Shown piece by piece: positions 2,105 to 27,065 of a DNA stretch of 64,000 nucleotides. Where the stretch lies: the NCBI GenBank assembly GCA_000004695.1, contig CM000154.2:4800001-4864000 (forward strand), given 5' to 3'. Position 1 is the first letter of the stretch. The number at the start of each line of letters is the position of its first letter. Source of the DNA: Dictyostelium discoideum. Taxonomy: Eukaryota. A model generated the notes under the pieces. That model was not told where the DNA came from, made no database searches, and saw only the letters and a list, made by a program, of their open reading frames with translations. Position numbers and translations under genes: made by a program.

Positions 2105-3917
2105 TTATGATTCAAGTGGTTTATTAACATTATTAAATATTTTTACCTTAAATTCAATTGTTAATTTATCATCTTTAGTTAGCCAACCATTCTCTTGGGT
2201 AATTAAATTTGAATCTATAATATATGATCTTCCCCAACTCCAATCCCATTCCAAATCATCTATGTCTTTTAACTCTATTTTCGATTTTTTTTTTAAAAAA
2301 AAAAAAAATATTAGTTATTTTTTTTAAAATAATTCTTTAATTTAAATTAGTGATATTACTTTGCGTTTTAAATTTTATTGAATTTGTTTCATCCAAAACA
2401 TTAACCAATTTACAAATGAACTCAACATTTGTTCCTTCAATACTTTTACCCATCAAAAATATTGCAATTTTGTTTATTCTTGATAAACCATTTTGATAAA
2501 AAGAAAGATGAAATATATTTTGCAGAATATTGCACAGTGATTGGGATTTTAAAAAATTATTTTGATTAACTTGGAAAGATGGAGAATTTAATAAACTACC
2601 CTTTGGATTTTTTTTAACAATTTTTGAATAGTCTGAAATGATCCATTCGTTTTTGTATTTAAGTGCATTTAATGATAAAAGTTGGTCATTTTGTTTTTGA
2701 AGTTTATCACAAATAATTCTTGATAGTTCAAATTGTTTATTAAGGTTTTCTTGAGTTTTCTCTAATTGTTCAATCTTTTTAACAAGTTTATCACAAATAA
2801 TCTTTGACCGTTCATATTCTTTATAAAGATTTTCTTGGTTTTTCTCTGATTTTTCAATCGTTTTAACTAGTTTATCACAAATAATCTTTGATCTATTCTC
2901 ACCAATAATTCTTGATAATTCAAATTGTTTATTAAGGTTTTCTTGAGTTTTCTCTAATTGTTCAATCTTTTTAACATGTTTATCACAAATAATCTTTGAT
3001 CGATTCTCACAGATAACCTTTGATTGATCATATTCTTTATTAAGGATTTCTTGGTTCTTCTCTGATTGTTCAATCTTTTTAACAAGTTCATCTTGGATAT
3101 TATGTGATTGAATTAATTTTGAAGATAGTTTATCAATTAATATACCCATGAAATATTGATGATTTACATTATTTAAATGATTTTGTAACTCTGATCTCTT
3201 CATTTCAACTTTACAACCATATTCATAATATTTACATTGTATTGTTGAATTATTACAATCATTATTTATATGTGATTGAGTTTGATCTCTTTCAACCATA
3301 ATTGAACAACTTTGTGGACAGCCAATTGGAAATTTTGGACATTCATTATTATGGTTCTCTAATTCCTTTTGAATGGTATCATCACAAGCACAATATTTAC
3401 ATTTAACTAATTTGTAACCACATTGATTTTCATGTTCTTTCAATGAATTTAATCTTAAAACAACATCACATCCATTATGTGAACATTCAACAAATTTAAA
3501 TTTACAATTTTGTATATGTCTATCTAATTGATCTATATTTATTATTTCTTTACAACCATTCTCTTTATCTTTAACCAATGTTATATTTTCATCTAGATTT
3601 GCATAATCAATAAAATGATCATTATTGAATGAATAAATACAATAACATTCTTTTTTACCAAAACCTTGTTCAATTACTAAACATCTTGATAAATCATTGA
3701 TTGAATTTACTTTTGATCTACAAATCATACATTCTTTTTTAATTTTTAATGATTTCTCCCAACATTCTTTACATGCAAAATGACCGGATTTACATTGAAA
3801 AATTGATTTTTTATAAATAAATTCAAAACAAATTGGACATGAATATTTATTTTTCTTTTGTAATGATTCTATATTTAATAAAACATCATTTATTGTAAAT
3901 TTTGAATTTATTGACAT
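2105..3917 (-). CDS. TRAF-like protein: RING finger + TRAF-type zinc fingers + coiled coil + MATH domain; 2 exons (2360-3917, 2105-2274)
   Basis: The N-terminus has a C3HC4 RING pattern ([24 protein letters not shown]) followed by Cys/His-rich TRAF zinc-finger spacing. The ORF stop at 2337 is intron read-through. The donor is caaa|gtaatatc (2358-2359) and the acceptor is atag| (2275-2276). The terminal exon encodes ..[55 protein letters not shown], which matches the C-termini of the paralogs here. Confidence 0.85.
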
Positions 3918-4841: not shown

Positions 4842-5094
4842 ATTAAATTGAGTTTTTCAAAACAAATAATCATAATATATTATTTTTTGGGTATTGAACA
4901 CGAAAAAAGAAACACCATTTTTATCAGTCATTAAGTAAGATAAAACGAAAATAATTATAAAAAAAAAAATGAATAAATGTTATAGATAATTAATGTTAGC
5001 TTTTTAAACAACAACTTTAGTTTTTAAATATTACAGTAATAATTCAAAAGTGAACATTTTATTTTATTTATTATAACAATATGGTGAGATTGAT

Positions 5095-7682: not shown

Positions 7683-8226
7683 TTTTTTTTTTTTATATTT
7701 AATTAAATTATTTAATTATTTATTTATTATTATTATTTTTTATTAATAAAATTATAAAAAAAATTTTTTTTTTTTTTTTTTTTTATGTAAAAAATAAAAA
7801 AAAATAAAATAAAAGAGACTTTGGGGGATTCATTTTTTTTTTTTTTTTTTTTAAAATATCTTCGACAGCAAAGATAAACCGTTATTATAATAAAAAAAAA
7901 AAACGAAAAGAAAAATTTAAAAATATCTACCCTTCTTTTCTGAAAAAAAAAAAAATTGTTCGCTGATTGGCTAATTAATTCATGATGTTGATAATATCTT
8001 TTTTTTATTAGTTTTTAATATTATAAAATGAATGGCGTTTAAGGTTCAATGTGTTTTGAAAAAAAAAAAAAAATTAAAAAAAAAAATATAAAAAAAATAA
8101 AAAAAAAAAATAAAATAAAAATAAAAAAAAATAAAGCAATCACTTCCTTATATAAAAATATCTTTTTTTTTTTTATTTTATTTAATTTTATTTTTTTTTT
8201 TTTTTTTTTTTTAAAAAAACTAAAGT

Positions 8227-9405
8227 TTAATTGTGATAATCACTAATAACTATTAATTTTTTACCTTTTAATATTGGTACCAAACAAGTTTTATCTAAAA
8301 TTAAATTTGATTCATCAATTATAACCCAATCAAAATCATTTTTATCTTTTAAAAATTTATCTAATGAATTTATATTTGATGATGATAATATAATTCTTGA
8401 TTCATTAATAGTTTTATTAATTAATGATTTTTCTAATTTATTTAAATCCTTTTTTAAAGAAGTAATTTTTGAAATTGATGAATTTATATCAGACTTTTTT
8501 GAATCCAATGTATTATTAGCCAATTCAATTATATCTTGTTTAATTTGTTTAATTGATTTACCACCTTCACTATGTTTGATTTTATACTCTAATGAAATAT
8601 TTTTAATTTCGCTTGGACTACCAATTTTTGTAATTAATTCATTATTATTATTGTTATTATTTTTATCATCATACAAACTATTACAAATGAAATCAATTGA
8701 CTCGTTTGAAGAACTATATACTAATATTTTATTTTTATCATTTGATTTAATTAAATGTTTAATTATATCAGTTATTGTTTTAACTTTACATGTATTATTT
8801 GAATTATTAATTTTTATAATATCTTGATTATTATTAATAATATTATTTTCTAAATCTTTTAAAATTATTTCACTATTTTTAAATTGATCTTTAGTTGTGC
8901 AAATATTATCATTATTATTATCATCTTCGAATAAACTTTTATATTTTTCATAACCATTTACACCATTTAACGATTCTAATGTTTCTTTTAAAATTTTATT
9001 TTGATTTTCATTGAAATTAATTTTATCAATTGAAAATTTAATAAATGAATAATCTTCTTGTACCCATTTATATGGTTGTCCAAATGAACTGAATAAAGTT
9101 GGATCATCACAATCAATTGAAATTATAATTTTATTTGATTTAATTTTATAAATTTCACCAAATAATTGATAATTTATCATTTTGTTTGGTTTTGAACTTT
9201 GAAATCTTACACCAACAGAATCACCAATTTGAAATTCACAATCATTTTCAAATTGTAAATCACCACCATTTTCCATTACAAATTTTAAAAAAACTCTACC
9301 TAATAATCCAGTTGATCTTCCATCAATTAATACATTATTAATTATCATTTGACTATTAATTATTTGATCTCCTTTTTCACCATCAATTGATTGTTCGTTT
9401 TTCAT
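8227..9405 (-). CDS. Degenerate, C-terminally truncated Upf1-like (SF1) helicase-related ORF; possible pseudogene
   Basis: Motif Ia-like KILVYSSSNESIDFI (cf. ILVCAPSNxAVD). Motif II-like FDWVIIDESNLILDKTCLVPILKGKKLIVISDYHN (cf. VIIDEAxQ..LIPL..KKLILVGDxxQL). The Walker A position has decayed: NSNNTCKVKT where GPPGTGKT is expected. The ORF stops immediately after the motif II/III boundary and no motifs III-VI follow. Confidence 0.55.
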   Translation of the reverse strand: MKNEQSIDGEKGDQIINSQMIINNVLIDGRSTGLLGRVFLKFVMENGGDLQFENDCEFQIGDSVGVRFQSSKPNKMINYQLFGEIYKIKSNKIIISIDCDDPTLFSSFGQPYKWVQEDYSFIKFSIDKINFNENQNKILKETLESLNGVNGYEKYKSLFEDDNNNDNICTTKDQFKNSEIILKDLENNIINNNQDIIKINNSNNTCKVKTITDIIKHLIKSNDKNKILVYSSSNESIDFICNSLYDDKNNNNNNNELITKIGSPSEIKNISLEYKIKHSEGGKSIKQIKQDIIELANNTLDSKKSDINSSISKITSLKKDLNKLEKSLINKTINESRIILSSSNINSLDKFLKDKNDFDWVIIDESNLILDKTCLVPILKGKKLIVISDYHN

Positions 9406-9426
9406 TTTTTATATTTTAATTTATTA

Positions 9427-9428
9427 AT

Positions 9429-9526
<98 letters not shown>

Positions 9527-9527
9527 C

Positions 9528-9617
<90 letters not shown>
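9427..9617. repeat. (ATTT)n microsatellite, ~45 units
   Basis: Direct reading. Track ORF 9391-9651 is its translation. Confidence 0.9.
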
Positions 9618-9619
<2 letters not shown>

Positions 9620-9807
9620 TTTGTTTATTTATATATTTTTTAATGTTTTGATTTATTTTTTTTTTTTTTAATGTTTTGATTTATTTTTTTTTTTTCAATG
9701 TTTTAATTTATAAATTTTTTAAAAAAATTTTTTTTTTTAATTCCTATGACGGTAACTCCATTTCATCCAAATACCATCGAAATTTAAATAGACAATACCC
9801 AAATAAT

Positions 9808-10277: not shown

Positions 10278-10471
10278 TTAAGACTCCAATGGTTCATATT
10301 CTTCATTTAAAATTTTAATATAAATTTCTATTATTAATTTATCATCATTACTTAACCAACCATTTTCTTTATTAATTAAATCAGATAATAAGAATTTTCC
10401 CCATCCCCATCCTTCTGAACTTATAAAAACTAAAATAAAAAATAAAAAAAAAATAATTTATTAGTAATTAA

Positions 10472-10551
<80 letters not shown>

Positions 10552-11798
10552 TTTTTGTATAAATTACCTTTTTTATCTTCTTTTTTTGTAATTGATTTTG
10601 ATTTATCCAAAACATTGACTAATGTAAATGAATATTCTACTTTTAATGAGTTTGGTTCTTCAATGTTATTAACTCTTAAATATAATGAAATGTACTCTTT
10701 ATTTTCATCACCTTTAGGATAAACACAAACTTGAAAAAGGTGAGAGAGTATTGACAACATTGGAGAGGACAATGCTTGACAATTTAATTTTGATTTTGCT
10801 ACACTTGAATAGTTTGAAATGATCCATTTATTTCTATACCCATTTGAACAAATATCCAAAGCCTTTGGAAGAACTTGTTTCTTTAAACATGCATCACTGA
10901 ATTTGATAACTAATAATGACAAATCTTCAATCTTTTTCAAAAGTTCATCATGAGTTTTCTTTGATTGGCCAACTTGATTTGTTAATTTTTCAATTAGAAT
11001 GCCCATGTAATTTTGATGATTCACTCTCTCCAAATGATTTTGTAATTCTGATCTCTTCATCTCAACTTTACAACCTTGTTCAAAATATTTACATGGTATT
11101 TGAGTATTACAACAATCATTTTCAATATGATCGATAATTGATTTCCTTTCAATTTTCACTGAACAACCTTGTGAGCAATCAATTGGAACCATAGGACATG
11201 TCTTATAATGAGTTTCTAATTCCTTCTTTTTAATATCATCCCTTTTACAGAAATCACATGTAACCAATTTGAAACCACATTCATTTTGATGAGATTCTAA
11301 CGAATTCATTCTTAAAATCTTTTCACATCCTTTGAATGAACATGTAACAAATTTATATTGACAATTGATTAAATGAGAATCAATTTGATCAACTTCAATT
11401 TTTTCTTTACAACCATTTTCTTCATCTTTTATTAATTTTCTTTGATTTTGGTCTGAGGCACCATCTGGTGGTGAACAATTTGTTCCACCTTCAACGATTT
11501 GTTCATTGAAAGAGTAAATACAACAACATTCTTTTTTATCAAATGCACGCTCTACCATCAAACATCTTGATAAATCATTATATGAATTCACTACTGATTT
11601 ACAAGTCATACATTCTTTTTTTGTTTCTAATGATTTCTCCCAACATTCTTTACATGCATGATGACCTGATTTACATTGATAAATTTGTTTTTTATAAATA
11701 AATTCAAAACAAATTGGACATGTATATTTATTTTTCTTTTGTAATGATTCTTGATTAAATAAAATATCATTAATTGTAAATTTTATATCAATTGACAT
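10278..11798 (-). CDS. TRAF-like protein (RING + TRAF zinc fingers + MATH); 2 exons; intron carries an (AAT)n microsatellite
   Basis: Same architecture and about 60% identity to gene 2105-3917 at the N-terminus ([33 protein letters not shown]..). The donor is aaaaaag|gtaattta (10566-10567). The track ORF tail YYYYYY.. is read-through of the (ATT)n intron (10472-10549). The terminal exon encodes ..[44 protein letters not shown]. The acceptor is either ttttag| (exon start 10429) or ttcag| (10414); both are in frame. Confidence 0.8.
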
Positions 11799-14824: not shown

Positions 14825-16027
14825 TTATGGTAAAACTTGAATTCTAAGACCAATAACTAATTTATCTTCATCAGTTAACCAACCATTTGCAGAATCAACA
14901 TCAACAGTTTTTAAAGTTTTTGGATAACCCCAACCAGAAGTTGCACCACCATTAAAAGTATACTCTTGAATTCTATAAGTTCTATTTTTACGAGAATCTT
15001 GATTATTAAATACAAATGTAAATGAAACTTTTACAGCTGGTTCATTGATACTAACTCTATAGAGGTAAGCAGAGATATTACCTTTATTAGATTCATCATA
15101 ACCATTTGGGTAAAGTGTTAATTTGAATTTATTATTACCAACATCCAAAGGGACTGTACTAATACCTTCATTCACTCTTTTTAATTTATGAGTTGAAAAT
15201 GTTGCGAAAATAATTGAATTTTTAAATCTTGGTAATAGTGATAATTTATTTGAAGCGTCCATTGATAATTGTTCCAATTTAATCACCCTTTCTAAAAGTT
15301 TTTCATATTTATTATTGATTTGGTAGATTTGGTTCTTACATTCAACCAATTCCAATTGTTGGTTATTTATAACTTTGTCCATCTCAAATGAGTGATTCAC
15401 CTTTTCATAATGGTCGGCCAATTCGAATCTTTTGAAATCAATAGACTCATTTTTACTATTATTTAGACAACAATATTTACATTTTACAATTGTAAATTTA
15501 CAATCTTGATCTATGTGCAGTCTTAATTGTTCCCTTGGGAATGATTTTTTACAAGACTCGGATTGAGTGCATTGTATTCTAACTTTTGGACAAACTAAAG
15601 CATGAGCATCCAATTGACCTGGTATCTCCTTATCACAATGTAAACAATACTTTGAACTGAATTTACAATCTATTTTATGTTCGGCAATTTGCTTTAATCT
15701 TAATATTTTATCACATCCTGTGAATGGACATTTTTCAAATCTAAATTGACATTCAACTTGATGTTTCTCTAATGCTTCAACTGTAATTATCTCTTTACAA
15801 CCATTTGATTCATCCCTTATCAATGCTTCATTCATTGATGAATCATCAACATTTACATTTTCAATAAAGAAAAATGAATTTGGACAATAAACTTTTTTTT
15901 TTAAAAACTCATTTTCAATAAATCTATTTCTTGATAATTCATTCATTGAATTAACTGGTGTTCTACAAATCATACATTCTTTTTTATTTAATAATGAATC
16001 TGACCAACATGATTTACATGCTAAATG

Positions 16028-16557: not shown

Positions 16558-17206
16558 TTATTGCCCAAATAAAGATTGAAATAATTTTGGAAATAATGAT
16601 TTTTCATTAATTGATAATTGTGAAAACCAAATTTTCATTGAATTAATATCATTTTTATCAATTGGAAATTGTTGTAATGATAAAGCAGTATTCATTTTGA
16701 AATTGAATGAAAAATCAGTATTTTCAGTATCCAATAGAATATAATTTAACATATTATCCTTTAGGATTTGAATACCTTCTTTTTCAATTGAATCACTATA
16801 ACTATTTGAACACATTAAACCTATTGAATAGATTATTTGATTTTTTATAGTTTCATTTGTTAATACACCAATTAAAATCCATAATTTAGTAGCAATCAAT
16901 GTATTATGAGACCAAATCCAACCTAAATAAATTGATAATAATTCTAAACTTAATAATATTGTAAATATTTCTTGATATTCTTGTTTTTGTTCTTGTTGAT
17001 TATTATTACTATTATTTTCAACAATTTCAATTAATTCATCAAGTTTTAAAATTAATGCATTTGAATAATTCTCTAAATTAAATTCATTATTAATTGGTAA
17101 ATTTATACATTGAAAGAATTTTTTAAATTTCCTAGCCTATATATAAAAAATAAAAAATAAAAAATTAATTAGTACAAAGATGTTAAATATTTAAAAAATT
17201 TAAAAC

Positions 17207-17296
<90 letters not shown>

Positions 17297-20200
17297 TACA
17301 ATAATTGAATTATCTTTTAATGATAATAATTTAAAATTTAAAATTGCAATAAATGTTTTTATCAAATAATCACCATCTTTTGATTTAAAAAATAAAGGTA
17401 TAATTGATTGAACGATTAAGAATATATCGATTCTAATTGTTGAATATTCTTTTAATGATTCATAAAGTAATGTTTGAATCGGATAGAATTGTTGTAAAAT
17501 TTGACAAACTGAACATAAAACTTGACATAAAAATAATGATTGTGATTCTTTTATCATTGATAATGAATTTATTATTGAATTTGAAATTTTCGATTTCAAT
17601 AATATTGTACTTATCATTAATTTAAAGAAATTAGATTTAAAATTATCATTACTCTTTATAAATTTACAAATTAATGAAATCATTGAAAGAAAACTCTTAT
17701 GTAATGGTTGTGTTGTTGAGTTTGTTGTAGTTGTAGTACTAGTTGTTGTTGTAGTTGTTGATGTTGTAATAATTGAATGACTTAATAAAAGACGTTCAAC
17801 AATTGAATAAAATAATTTTTTCACCCAAATTGTTTCATTACCACCATTTTCTTTCCATGATTCTAATGATAATGATTTATATACAGGTTCAATTGAATTT
17901 GAATCAAATGATGATTGAATTTTTGATAATTGTTCATCAATAAATTTATATGTTAAATGTTGACTCTTATCAATTGGTTTTGATTTTGGTTTTGATTTTG
18001 GTTTTGGTTTTGGTAGTTGTGATTGTTTTTTTACTGTTGTTGTTTGTTGTGGTAGTTGTGGTGGTTGTGGTGGTTGTTTTTGTTGAGTAATAAGTGGTGG
18101 TAAAGAATCAAATAATTTATTTCTTTTTTCATTTGGTTGAGAAGTTTGTATTGCAGTACTACTCTTTTCAATTTCTGTATCTGATAATTTTCTTTTATTA
18201 TTTTTACTTGGTGATTGTATTGTTGATTTTGGTGGTGGTAAAGTTGTAGTGATGGTTGTAGGTGTAGGTGTGGGTATTGGTGTTGGTATTGGTGTTGGTA
18301 TTGGTGTTGGTATTGGTTTAGCAGCTTTTATCTTATTTTCTAAATTCTTTTCAGCCAATTTTTGCTGAAGAGGTTGTTTTTTATTCTTTTCTGGTGATGG
18401 ACTATTAATTGTTGTTTCAAATATACCAGGTGAAATTGGTGAAAATACTGAAAAATCTGATGAAACTGCATTCAACACTGAGTAAGGATCACGTGTTATT
18501 TGGTTATTTAATGATGATGATGATGATGATGATGATGACGATGGTGGTGTAAGTATAATTGGTGTTGTTTCAAAATTAGTTGGGGTTGTAACTATATCTG
18601 TTGCCTTGTTTGTTGTTGGCGTTGTTGTAGTTGAATTAGAAATTATTTCTGATGTTGGTGTTGCTGGAATTGATATTGATATTGGTATTGGTGTTGGTGT
18701 TGTTGTTGGATTTGGTGTTGTTGGTGTTGTTGTTGGTGTTGTTGGTGTTGTTGGTGTTGGATTTGAAATTGTTTCAGTTGATATTGGTGTAGGTGTTGAA
18801 GTGGTGGTAGCATTAGGTATTTTAGTAGTATTGTTTGTTGGTAAATTTAATGTTTTAGTAGTTTTAGAAATTGTTGATTTTTTAGGTATTGTTTTTTTAG
18901 CAGCACTAGGTTGAGGTTTAGTAATTGGTGGTGGTGGTGTAAATACCTCAAGTTCAATTGATTTAATTTCTTTAATTTCTTTATCAATTTCCTTATCAAT
19001 TTCCTTTTCAAATACTTGATCCTCTTTTAATTTTCTCTCATTTTCCAATTTCTCTTTTTCCTTTTGTTTTTCATTCTCTAATTGTTTTTGAATTTCAATA
19101 TCTCTTTCTTTTTCAATATCTCTCTCTTTTTCAATCAATCTTTCTTTTTCTTTTTGTTGTTCTAGCTTTTCTTTTTCCAATCTCTCTTTATCTAATTTTT
19201 CTTTTTCTAATCTTTCTTTTTGTTGTTCTTTTTCCAACTTTTCTTTTTCTTTTTGAAACCTTTCTCTCTCTAATCTTTCTTTTTCTAATCTTTCTTTTTC
19301 TAATCTTTCTTTCTCTAATCTTTCTTTTTGTAATCTTTCTTTTTCAAATCTTTCTTTTTCAATTCTTTCTTTTTCCTTTTGTAACCTTTCTCTCTCTAAC
19401 TTTTCTTTTTCTAACTTTTCTTTTTCTAACCTCTCTTTTTCTAATTTTTCTTTTTCCTTTTGTGATCTTTCTCTCTCTAACCTTTCTTTTTCTAATCTTT
19501 CTTTTTCTAATCTTTCTTTTTCTAATCTTTCTTTTTCTAATCTTTCTTTTTCTAATCTTTCTTTTTCTAATCTTTCTTTTTCTAGTCTTTCTTTTTCTAA
19601 TTTTTCTTTTTCAAATTGTTCTTGTTTTGTTTTTTCAATTATTTCCATTTGTTTTTGTTTGATAGTTAACATTTCATCAATTTCAAATAAATTACTACCT
19701 ATATCATCATCCTCACTACCAAATCCTGGAATATCGTTATCATCTGATTCTGTTTCTGTTTCTGGTTCAGACTCTGAATCCGAATCATCGCTTTCTTCAT
19801 CAGATTCTTTTTCACTTTTATCATTATCCTTCATTAAAATATCTTTTGTAGTATCATTTTCTAAAATTGATATTTGTTGTTGTGGTGATGTTATAGTTGT
19901 TGTTGCTGCTGTTATTGTTGGTGACGGTGGTAAAATTGTTTTTGTGGTTGTTGTTGTTATGGTTGGGGGTGAGGTGGTTTTAAAAATTGGTGCATTTATA
20001 GTGGTGTTTTTCTTTTGTGGTTGTATTGTTTGAATAATTGGTGTTAGTGGTGATGTTGTTGTTGTTAAAATTGGTGGTGATGTTGTTTTTGTTGTTATAA
20101 TTGGTGGTGGTGGTGTTGTTGTTATTGTTGTTGTTGTTGTTGTTGTTTTTATAATTGGTGGTGGTGTTGTTTTTATAATTGGTGGTGGTAGTGATGGTGT

Positions 20201-21569
20201 TGTTGTTATAATTGGTGGTGGTGGTGATGTTGTTGTTATAGCTGGTGGTGATGTTGTTTTTGTTGTTGCTATAATTGGTGGTGGTAGTGATGGTGTTGTT
20301 GTTTTTATAGTTGGTGGCAGTGGTGATGTTGTTGTTGCTGCTATAATTGGCGGTGATGATGTTGTTGTTTTTGTGGTTGTTGTTGCTGCTGCTATAATTG
20401 GTGGTGTTGTTGTTGTTATAATTGGTGGTGTTGTTGTTGCTACTATAATTGGAGGTGATGTTGTTTTTGTTATAATTGGTGGTAATGTTGTTTTTGCTGC
20501 TATAATTGGTGGTGATGTTGTTTTTGTTGTTGCTGTTGTTGTTGCTGCTGCAATAGTTTCAAGTACTTTGGTTCCATCCTCCCAAAAATCTTCTTCATAT
20601 TCTTCATTAATTTTATTTACATTTTCATTTACATTTACATTTACATTTACATCTACATCTCTATTTTCAAACAAATCACTATTAATTTGCTCAAATTCTA
20701 TATCACCTTCCAATTCTTTTTCTTTTTCTCTTTCCCTTTTTAATTCTTTCTCTAATTCTTTTTCTTTTTCTAATTGTTTTTCTTTTTCTAATAACTGCTT
20801 TTGATTTTCTTCAAATTGAGAGATTGTCATATTATCATTATCATCATCGTAACTTAATCCAATATCATTATTATTATTATTATTATTATGTTCCTTATTA
20901 TTATTGATTTCATTATCTTCATTATTAATATCATTTTCTAAATCTCCATTATCATTAAATGATGGTATATTATTTAATTGATTAGCTAAATCATCATGAT
21001 CATCTTGTTCATTTACTTTTTTTCTACGTCTAGTTAATGTTTTTAATTGTGTTTCATTATTATTATTATTATCATCATTATTATCATTATTATTATTATT
21101 ATCATTATCATTATTTTTGTTATCATTAAATTTACCACAACCAGGACAAGAGAAAGAGAAAATCTTTTTTTTTAAACTTGTGTTATCTTTTTCTAATTTC
21201 TCAGATTTCTTTTTAAATTCTATATATTTTTTTTTATATTCGTCAAATAATTCCAATTTCTTATTGGCTTTATCCATATTTTCTAATAACATACTATAAC
21301 TTTCAACCTTTGCACGAATTTGAACGTTTAAAGAATTCATTGATATAACTTCAGCATCTTTTGATGCCAATTCTTTATTAATTCTTTCAATTGTTTCTTC
21401 TAATTTTGAAATCTTTGTTCTTAATGGTAAATGACTATTAATTTCAGTATCTAATTGAAACTTTAAATTTTTAGTTTCTTTTTGTTCATTTACATATAAT
21501 TTTTCAAAATGTTTTTCATTATTATTATTATTATTATTACTACTATTACAATTATTTTCAAAATGTTTT

Positions 21570-21631
<62 letters not shown>

Positions 21632-22036
21632 GTTATTATTATTGTTCCTATTATTATTAATAATTTGAATTTGATTATTTAATTTATTATTTAAATTTTC
21701 TATATTTATATTTTTTTGTTCCAATTGAAATTGTTGATTATTTAAAATTAATTTTAATTTATCATTCTCTTGTGTTATAAATTGGTTTTGTGTTTGAAGT
21801 TCTTTAAATCTTGAAACTAATGAACTAGTAGCTATAATTTTGGATTTCATTATCATTAAATTATTATTTACAATATCATTATTATTATTATTGGTGGTAT
21901 TGTTATTATTTACATTTTGGGTTGACATTGGTGTTGAGTTTATTTCAACAATTTTATTTTCATTATTTTTATTATTATTATTGTTATTATCATTATTATT
22001 GTTATTATCTGTATTTGTAAAATTATCCATTGTCAA
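16558..22036 (-). CDS. Very large (~1750 aa) low-complexity protein with ERLEK heptad repeats, Thr/Pro-rich TTSPPII repeats and a poly-Asn N-terminus; 2 exons (17300-22036, 16558-17136)
   Basis: Long ORF 17183-22036. Its last residues (IIIII..) are read-through of an (AAT)n-containing intron. The donor is att|gtaatt (17298-17299) and the acceptor is atatag| (17137-17138). The last exon continues in frame as [19 protein letters not shown].. and ends ..LFQSLFGQ* (this overlaps track ORF 16558-16899). The function is unknown. Confidence 0.75.
17201..17297. repeat. (AAT)n/(ATT)n microsatellite within the intron of gene 16558-22036
   Basis: Direct reading. Confidence 0.9.

Positions 22037-22799: not shown

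Positions 22800-27065
<4,266 letters not shown>

Follow-up and report, generated by a model that had tools for sequence, protein, structure and literature searches.

DDB_G0290969 is a gene of Dictyostelium discoideum AX4 that lies on the minus strand at 8227..9405 of a 64,000-nucleotide stretch of that genome (contig CM000154.2, positions 4,800,001 to 4,864,000; hereafter the window) and that, judged by sequence and predicted structure, encodes a truncated, catalytically degenerate paralogue of the helicase IGHMBP2 (SMUBP-2). A first-pass annotation had described this open reading frame (ORF) as the relic of an Upf1-like superfamily 1 (SF1) helicase, leaving two possibilities: a pseudogene, or an unusual short helicase-derived protein. 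The second is favoured by the evidence of selection and conservation. DDB_G0290969 is probably a functional, lineage-restricted gene, a partial duplicate of IGHMBP2 whose product most likely works in a non-catalytic mode, as a binding protein or scaffold.

The ORF is found exactly as first described: a single exon of 392 codons followed by TAA, whose translation is 100% identical over 392 aa to an annotated protein (P0001). This protein is already annotated as hypothetical, and its UniRef name is ‘DNA2/NAM7 helicase helicase domain-containing protein’. The window is strongly AT-rich (∼15-35% GC), with poly-Asn tracts and homopolymer spacers, and the coding sequence (CDS) of the gene has 19% GC. 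Three further D. discoideum-group assemblies (FIR, FIY and FIZ) contain orthologues of the fragment, as does D. citrinum, whose 405-aa protein is 71% identical; the order of TRAF/MATH gene, fragment and the gene DDB_G0290967 is conserved.

Descent from IGHMBP2 and domain architecture

The helicase assignment made at first pass is borne out by a Pfam AAA_11 match that is far beyond chance: residues 194-389 align to profile positions 17-246 of 257 with 64.5 bits against a cutoff of 27 (E 1.6e-17). The same scan gives no AAA_12 match, and the Pfam model of domain 1B, PF21138, has no match in the protein at E<=1. When the PDB is searched with phmmer, human IGHMBP2/SMUBP-2 is the top match (4b3f, E 2e-9, residues 196-390) and Upf1/Nam7 rank behind it; the alignment with 4b3f ends at ‘GDH’, the start of motif III. 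When 1.84 billion representative sequences are scanned exhaustively with phmmer, only DDB_G0290969 itself scores below 1e-30. The next match, an IGHMBP2 orthologue of Acytostelium (P0006, 989 aa, E 1.6e-19), aligns to residues 23-390, and therefore the N-terminal region is homologous to IGHMBP2 as well. The intact N-terminal region of ∼150 aa reported at first pass is indeed present, but it corresponds to the 1B β-barrel and stalk of IGHMBP2 and is not novel sequence.

The Upf1-like SF1 origin stands in the same qualified sense: the homology is to that group of helicases, but the parent is IGHMBP2/SMUBP-2, of which the fragment is an extra paralogue by sequence comparison, and not Upf1 itself. 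Identity to the fragment is 33% for the full-length IGHMBP2 of D. discoideum (E 4e-35) and of D. citrinum, 31-32% for D. firmibasis and D. dimigraforme, 27-28% for other dictyostelids and 18-24% for Planoprotostelium and animals. In the 1C region it reaches 41% with the parent from D. discoideum and 21-23% with the Acytostelium or mammalian protein, and the 1C motifs ‘SEGG’ and ‘EKSLI’ are common only to the fragment and the IGHMBP2 of group-4 Dictyostelium. In a neighbour-joining tree the fragment joins the IGHMBP2 proteins of dictyostelids with 88% bootstrap; its branch is very long, and its basal position there is probably due to long-branch attraction. Shared derived residues are a weak guide to the date of the duplication (4 vs 2 sites in a strict count). 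Among the short matches of the exhaustive scan none offers a parallel: in all seven (P0026, P0027, P0028, P0077, P0078, P0087 and P0139) GPPGTGKT is intact, and each either runs on beyond motif III or appears to be cut off.

An AlphaFold2 model, built from orthologues and full-length relatives, has a predicted local distance difference test score (pLDDT) of 71 and a predicted TM-score (pTM) of 0.71. It consists of a β-barrel (residues 21-128), helices, and an α/β domain (196-388) with a long helical hairpin at residues 280-335. The first match in Foldseek is the IGHMBP2 crystal structure 4b3f (E 2.9e-17, query-normalised TM-score 0.66, 393 aligned columns), followed by UPF1, SETX/Sen1 and DNA2. 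The predicted fold thus includes both accessory elements of IGHMBP2, the 1B β-barrel and the 1C helical insert within the first RecA-like domain (RecA1).

The arrangement can be read against that of human IGHMBP2, in which the stalk spans residues 3-33 and 142-158, domain 1B 34-141, 1A 159-270 and 347-440, 1C 271-346 and 2A 441-648 (Lim et al. 2012, PMC3505976). In the fragment, with all coordinates on the minus strand, a low-confidence N-terminal tail (residues 1-24, 9334..9405; pLDDT <50 at 1-18) precedes the 1B-like barrel (25-130, 9016..9333), which is delimited by the AlphaFold2 strands, by Foldseek to 4b3f, and by phmmer and tblastn matches to Acytostelium IGHMBP2 from residue ∼23. The position of the start codon varies among the orthologues, and the D. 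citrinum tail retains the IGHMBP2 N-terminal helix signature F(I/V)EK(S/T)L..LD.E. There follow the second stalk helix with an Asn-rich linker (131-190, 8836..9015; pLDDT <50 at 162-175), the first part of RecA1, or domain 1A (191-262, 8620..8835), the 1C-like helical insert, which starts with GSPSE (263-335, 8401..8619; AlphaFold2 helices at 280-335), and the second part of RecA1, through the strand that bears motif III (336-392, 8230..8400); both parts of RecA1 are supported by AAA_11, phmmer and the model. Homology stops at human residue ∼401, so that 1B, the second stalk helix, 1C, most of 1A and part of the first stalk helix are kept.

The gene would have arisen by partial duplication of the intronless Dictyostelium IGHMBP2 gene, with the 5′ ∼40% of the parent kept. 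The copy would have lost the last ∼40 residues of 1A (human ∼400-440), the whole of 2A (RecA2, with motifs IV-VI), R3H and zf-AN1; all of these are missing from DDB_G0290969. Full-length, intact and intronless IGHMBP2 coexists with the fragment in D. discoideum and D. citrinum, and the dictyostelid parents P0162, P0161 and P0006 carry R3H and zf-AN1.

The break falls at motif III, as reported at first pass. Residues 384-392 (LIVISDYHN; 8227..8256 on the minus strand, the TAA included) form a β-strand and the first residues of the motif, SDYHN standing opposite GDHQQLPP of the parent. An exon boundary as the cause is ruled out, since the parental genes consist of one exon each (3063 nt, 1020 aa). 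With five full-length IGHMBP2 queries, sensitive settings and the low-complexity filter off, tblastn finds nothing past query residue ∼428-438 when all frames of the window and of the four orthologous loci L001-L004 are read. Nor does it find remnants of motifs III-VI, R3H or AN1 in the window or within 5 kb at these loci; a partner encoded in trans at a distant site was not looked for. TAA stands at the same codon in the four genomes of the D. discoideum group; in D. citrinum that codon is CAA and the ORF ends six codons further on. Past the stop all five sequences turn into unconserved A/T runs. The statement that only homopolymer DNA and an unrelated gene lie downstream accordingly stands: a 3′ spacer rich in A/T homopolymers (7683..8226, minus strand) contains no coding remnant of the lost motifs or domains, and beyond it lies DDB_G0290967, which has no Pfam match. 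Because the stop position is conserved in five genomes and nothing downstream matches in any frame, the truncation reads as real and old.

Purifying selection on the fragment

The ratio of nonsynonymous to synonymous substitution rates (dN/dS, or omega) is 0.29-0.40 in ten pairs of orthologues by the NG86 method, with bootstrap upper bounds that are all <=0.68. Likelihood-ratio tests under the GY94/F3x4 codon model reject omega=1 in 7/7 pairs (p 4.8e-7 to 1.6e-27), with omega at 0.07-0.16. Neutrality fails under either method.

Constraint is distributed as the predicted domains are. The 1C-like insert is the most constrained part (NG86 omega 0.15-0.18), followed by the barrel (0.22-0.32) and the two parts of RecA1 (0.32-0.49 together; 0.33-0.49 for the first and 0.32-0.45 for the second). 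The tail and the Asn-rich linker drift at 0.5-0.96: the tail evolves fast, at 0.55-0.86 against D. citrinum, and the region of the second stalk helix and linker is near-neutral at 0.54-0.96. These unconstrained segments coincide with the segments of low pLDDT. For the 59-codon linker on its own the fit of the codon model diverged (t → infinity), and it is disregarded.

The homologous region of full-length IGHMBP2 provides a yardstick in the same species pair. By NG86 its omega is 0.13 (dN 0.039), against 0.37 (dN 0.143) for the fragment; the GY94 values, 0.049 for the parent and 0.074 for the fragment, are not significantly different (p = 0.25). The fragment protein thus evolves ∼3.7x faster than the parent yet stays constrained, and this result is robust. 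Both sets of omega values are quoted because the methods differ ∼five-fold in this 19%-GC gene; in genomes with such an AT bias, absolute omega should be given together with the method used.

Degenerate sites and competing explanations

The catalytic motifs tell a consistent story across the five orthologues, in which the losses at the ATP site and at the RNA contacts are fixed alike. The Walker A motif (residues 201-208, NSNNTCKV, 8782..8805, minus strand), described at first pass as decayed, reads NSN(N/T)(T/S)CKV opposite the GPPGTGKT of all full-length relatives. Three Gly are lost and the Mg-coordinating Thr is replaced by Val, but Lys207 is retained and invariant, as is the whole K-V-K-T portion. 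The LNxSQ that precedes motif I (human Q196) is lost. Motif Ia is retained, as had been claimed, and so is the Asp-Glu of motif II. In motif Ia (231-239, SSSNESIDF, 8689..8715, minus strand), (S/P/L)SNESIDF aligns to PSNxxVDN, and S233, N234 and D238 are invariant across the fragment and the full-length proteins. In motif II, or Walker B (361-367, VIIDESN, 8305..8325, minus strand), which aligns to VIIDE(C/A)AQ, D364-E365 is invariant and the Gln is replaced (DESNL). Motif Ic has changed from TNTGA to SSNINS, with a one-residue length difference among orthologues, and motif III, SDYH(N/H) before the stop, keeps its Asp. Lys207 and Asp364-Glu365 may have been retained simply to stabilise the RecA1 core.

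ATPase or translocase activity would not be expected of such a protein, because RecA2, which supplies motifs IV-VI and half of the ATP cleft, is missing and the P-loop Gly and Mg-binding Thr are replaced. Since the folded domains are under purifying selection despite these dead sites, non-catalytic action is the most likely. The 1B/1A/1C module could serve as a binding or scaffold surface, by analogy with known pseudohelicases, and might, more speculatively, compete for or bridge a partner of full-length IGHMBP2. That it binds proteins or acts as a scaffold is speculative, and so is any particular partner. ABT1 is a known activator of IGHMBP2 whose binding site is unmapped (PMC9977310), and for that reason the idea of ABT1 as a shared partner stays speculative too.

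A more specific version of this proposal is possible, if a good deal less secure: the fragment may be a neofunctionalised ‘half-helicase’, in which the 1B barrel, the incomplete RecA1 and 1C together form an autonomous binding protein of the D. discoideum/D. citrinum clade. Such a protein could modulate an IGHMBP2-dependent ribosome or translation pathway by titrating a shared partner, or could have acquired a new partner within its fast-evolving TRAF/MATH neighbourhood.

It is unlikely that the fragment acts instead as an ATP-independent decoy or clamp on RNA, binding or sequestering IGHMBP2 substrates (tRNA, rRNA precursors, mRNA 3′ segments) without translocating. The idea has a structural rationale: 1A, 1B and 1C grip the 3′ end of single-stranded RNA (ssRNA) in IGHMBP2, where 1B and 1C contact it, and Upf1 without 1C loses nucleic-acid binding (PMC3505976). 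In the fragment 1C is the region under the strongest constraint, N234 corresponds to the RNA-contact residue Asn245 of the human protein, and Thr351 of motif Ic is conservatively Ser; the pseudohelicase MUT-15, moreover, still binds RNA. However, of the nine RNA-contact residues listed for IGHMBP2 (PMC3505976), five lie in the deleted part and Asn245 is the only one strictly kept. Arg270, at the GSPSE with which the 1C-like insert starts, has become Glu or Asp in every orthologue, Thr353 is Asn, and motif Ic varies in length. The four full-length orthologues are also acidic, with an isoelectric point (pI) of 5.2-5.8, where the corresponding part of the D. discoideum parent has 8.1. With five of nine contacts deleted, the charge at Arg270 reversed and the protein acidic, binding in the canonical ssRNA channel seems unlikely, though this is held more weakly than the loss of ATPase activity.

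Several observations weigh against a functional gene with a binding role. A literature search by gene ID gave no paper naming DDB_G0290969, and the search gave no expression, protein or phenotype data on it. No orthologue is seen beyond D. citrinum. In D. dimigraforme the orthologous interval (L005, 8889-10000), which lies between the TRAF/MATH gene and the DDB_G0290967 orthologue and whose flanks are confirmed as orthologous by BLASTN and the anchor gene, consists of 1.1 kb of low-complexity sequence from which the fragment is wholly absent. In the isolate FIZ (‘D. cf. discoideum’) a GAA>TAA change places a nonsense codon at codon 53 (L004 ∼4863-5000), which could mean that the gene is dispensable or that residues 76/80-392 alone are important. 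The protein substitution rate is ∼3.7x that of the parent, and the two omega estimates for one and the same alignment, 0.37 by NG86 and 0.07 by GY94/F3x4, lie about five-fold apart. Confidence in the AlphaFold2 model is moderate and is aided by the full-length homologues in its alignment; RecA1 is incomplete, so that autonomous folding is not assured and a partner may be needed for it. Finally, the ABT1 site cannot be mapped onto the fragment, as it is unmapped on IGHMBP2 itself (PMC9977310).

Some of these points bear on details of history. The fragment is polymorphic for presence or absence between close species. Either the gene arose in the discoideum/citrinum ancestor and went through a burst of divergence, or it has an earlier origin and D. 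dimigraforme has lost or relocated it; synteny does not reach deeper orthologues, as the anchor gene has no detectable orthologue beyond D. dimigraforme. In FIZ an extra in-frame Gly codon sits just upstream of the nonsense codon, the orthologue is annotated from Met80 (316 aa), and the branch shows no obvious relaxation (6 synonymous and 8 nonsynonymous private changes). The TAA at codon 53 could be a recent loss (of the first half of the barrel), could be bypassed by a start at Met76/Met80, or could be a sequencing or assembly error.

Several of the same observations speak for a pseudogene, that is, a partial IGHMBP2 duplicate that lost its function on truncation and is decaying, its open frame a leftover and its gene model an artefact. 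The break inside motif III, the destroyed P-loop, the absence of RecA2 and the mere 33% identity to the parent point the same way as the FIZ nonsense codon, the empty D. dimigraforme interval and the silence of the literature. This reading is nonetheless improbable, and the selection tests already disfavour it. The frame is open in AX4, FIR, FIY and D. citrinum, without frameshifts and with all indels in-frame, across dS ∼0.4. With this base composition the chance that a random codon is a stop is 0.11, and a stop would result from 6.6% of point substitutions in the CDS. There are ∼186 substitutions between AX4 and D. citrinum, yet 4/5 ORFs are open; a neutral frame of 392 codons would not stay open, and end at one and the same position, in four lineages. 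The predicted domains are constrained while the linkers drift, and the degenerate motifs are themselves invariant among orthologues. The word ‘relic’ therefore does not fit a gene whose ORF and stop position are conserved in five genomes, in which omega=1 is rejected in all seven pairs tested and the constraint sits in folded domains. Truncation and motif decay are insufficient for a pseudogene call, and here comparative data reverse it.

Least probable is an incomplete gene model, with downstream exons, a frameshifted continuation or a RecA2 half encoded in trans (a split helicase): the +1 frame at the stop does read ‘QL’, reminiscent of GDxxQL, and short AT-rich introns are frequent in Dictyostelium genes, but the tblastn searches are blank save for one weak match in a Thr/Pro low-complexity tract, the parent gene has no introns, the conserved stop is followed by unconserved poly-A/T, and a RecA2 supplied in trans could not restore ATPase to a dead P-loop. 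The absence of further exons, anticipated at first pass, is thus upheld.

Genomic setting and comparison with known systems

DDB_G0290969 sits in a changeable neighbourhood. RING/zf-TRAF/MATH genes surround it (2337-3917, 10461-11798 and 14825-15973, all on the minus strand; loci L001-L005), and their number and arrangement vary among the six genomes compared. This suggests a region of fast turnover, which may have favoured the partial duplication. At 10461-10560 (minus strand) the TRAF/MATH ORF ends in ∼30 residues of poly-Tyr from a (TAT)n tract, and its MATH match is cut short; the annotated orthologues measure 446-460 aa and their genes span more sequence, and the poly-Tyr end is probably an unspliced intron in a mechanically called ORF and not real coding sequence. 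Directly upstream of the ATG of DDB_G0290969, at ∼9420-9650, lies a long (TAAA)n/(AAAT)n microsatellite, which on the plus strand gives a spurious 86-aa ‘LFIYLFIY’ ORF.

The downstream neighbour DDB_G0290967 (6120-7682, minus strand, 520 aa) is orphan-like. It has no Pfam match and no sequence match in the PDB with a 6-sequence profile, its AlphaFold2 model has a pLDDT of 30, and no orthologues turned up outside the D. discoideum group, D. citrinum and D. dimigraforme (NG86 omega 0.13-0.56). An invariant block, ‘IVGGH.R.F.D..RDTFLILPICN.HN’ (∼322-348), resembles a catalytic or metal-binding motif. A functional link between the fragment and this gene draws no support from its Pfam, PDB or AlphaFold2 results.

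Elsewhere in the window, a 1617-aa ORF (17183-22036, minus strand) is mostly low-complexity, with poly-N, Thr/Pro-rich ‘TTSPPII’ repeats and ‘(EKERL)n’ repeats, and yields spurious tblastn matches to helicase motif III (‘QLPPTIK’). The weak double match at 20264-20359 belongs to its Thr/Pro-rich tract and is not a helicase continuation. A gene of the xanthine dehydrogenase/aldehyde oxidase type occupies 22800-27065 (plus strand) over at least 2 ORFs, one of 228 aa, whose Cys pattern resembles 2Fe-2S when judged by eye, and one of 1128 aa with FAD- and molybdenum cofactor-binding domains. It is an ordinary housekeeping gene and forms a compositional contrast, with GC up to 35%.

If the ‘half-helicase’ proposal is true, DDB_G0290969 would be, as far as found, the first single-RecA pseudohelicase under selection in the Upf1-like family, and would show that what the accessory 1B and 1C domains do can be separated from the motor. 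A selected natural protein that consists of the 1B/1A/1C half of IGHMBP2 alone would amount to a natural deletion experiment, one that points to a binding function independent of ATP hydrolysis. The accessory domains of IGHMBP2 carry several of the mutations that give rise to spinal muscular atrophy accompanied by respiratory distress (SMARD1) and Charcot–Marie–Tooth disease (CMT2S) in humans, and the fragment could point to IGHMBP2 partners in an organism that is amenable to genetics. Its scope is modest: the clade is narrow, evolution is fast and one isolate has an interrupted frame.

The closest known system is the parent. IGHMBP2/SMUBP-2 (Hcs1 in yeast), an Upf1-like helicase of SF1B, has in its structures (4b3f, 4b3g) the 1B barrel, stalk, RecA1 and 1C insert in the same order, and shares with the fragment the S-N...D of motif Ia, the Lys of Walker A, the D-E of Walker B and the Asp of motif III. 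The fragment differs in having no residues ∼400-440 of 1A, no 2A, no R3H and no zf-AN1, in its altered Walker A, Q196 and Arg270, and in its acidity; it is confined to the D. discoideum/D. citrinum clade, where it stands beside intact IGHMBP2.

To our knowledge, helicase-derived pseudoenzymes are only starting to be recognised, and those described, Utp25 and MUT-15, keep both RecA domains. RecC and AddB are bacterial examples, SF1 helicase folds that have lost their ATPase motifs and been repurposed for binding or recognition in a complex. They differ from the fragment in having two RecA-like domains and in being part of a well-defined complex. Two traits of a pseudohelicase, a helicase fold (here predicted) with degenerate catalytic motifs and retention by purifying selection, are found in DDB_G0290969. 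Utp25/Def of the small-subunit (SSU) processome (PMC9539457) and C. elegans MUT-15, a CPUG scaffold that scaffolds and licenses a nuclease complex (bioRxiv 10.64898/2026.09.04.749402), provide the concept by which the fragment most likely works. Both are SF2 proteins, DEAD-box-like, with both RecA-like domains kept and a function established by experiment, whereas the fragment is of SF1B type, combines an incomplete RecA1 with accessory domains, and is known here from sequence and model. With ordinary pseudogenes formed by partial duplication it shares its origin, the loss of the parental 3′ part and one isolate with a nonsense codon. Unlike them, it is not neutral: its ORF, its stop position and its in-frame indels are conserved across species.

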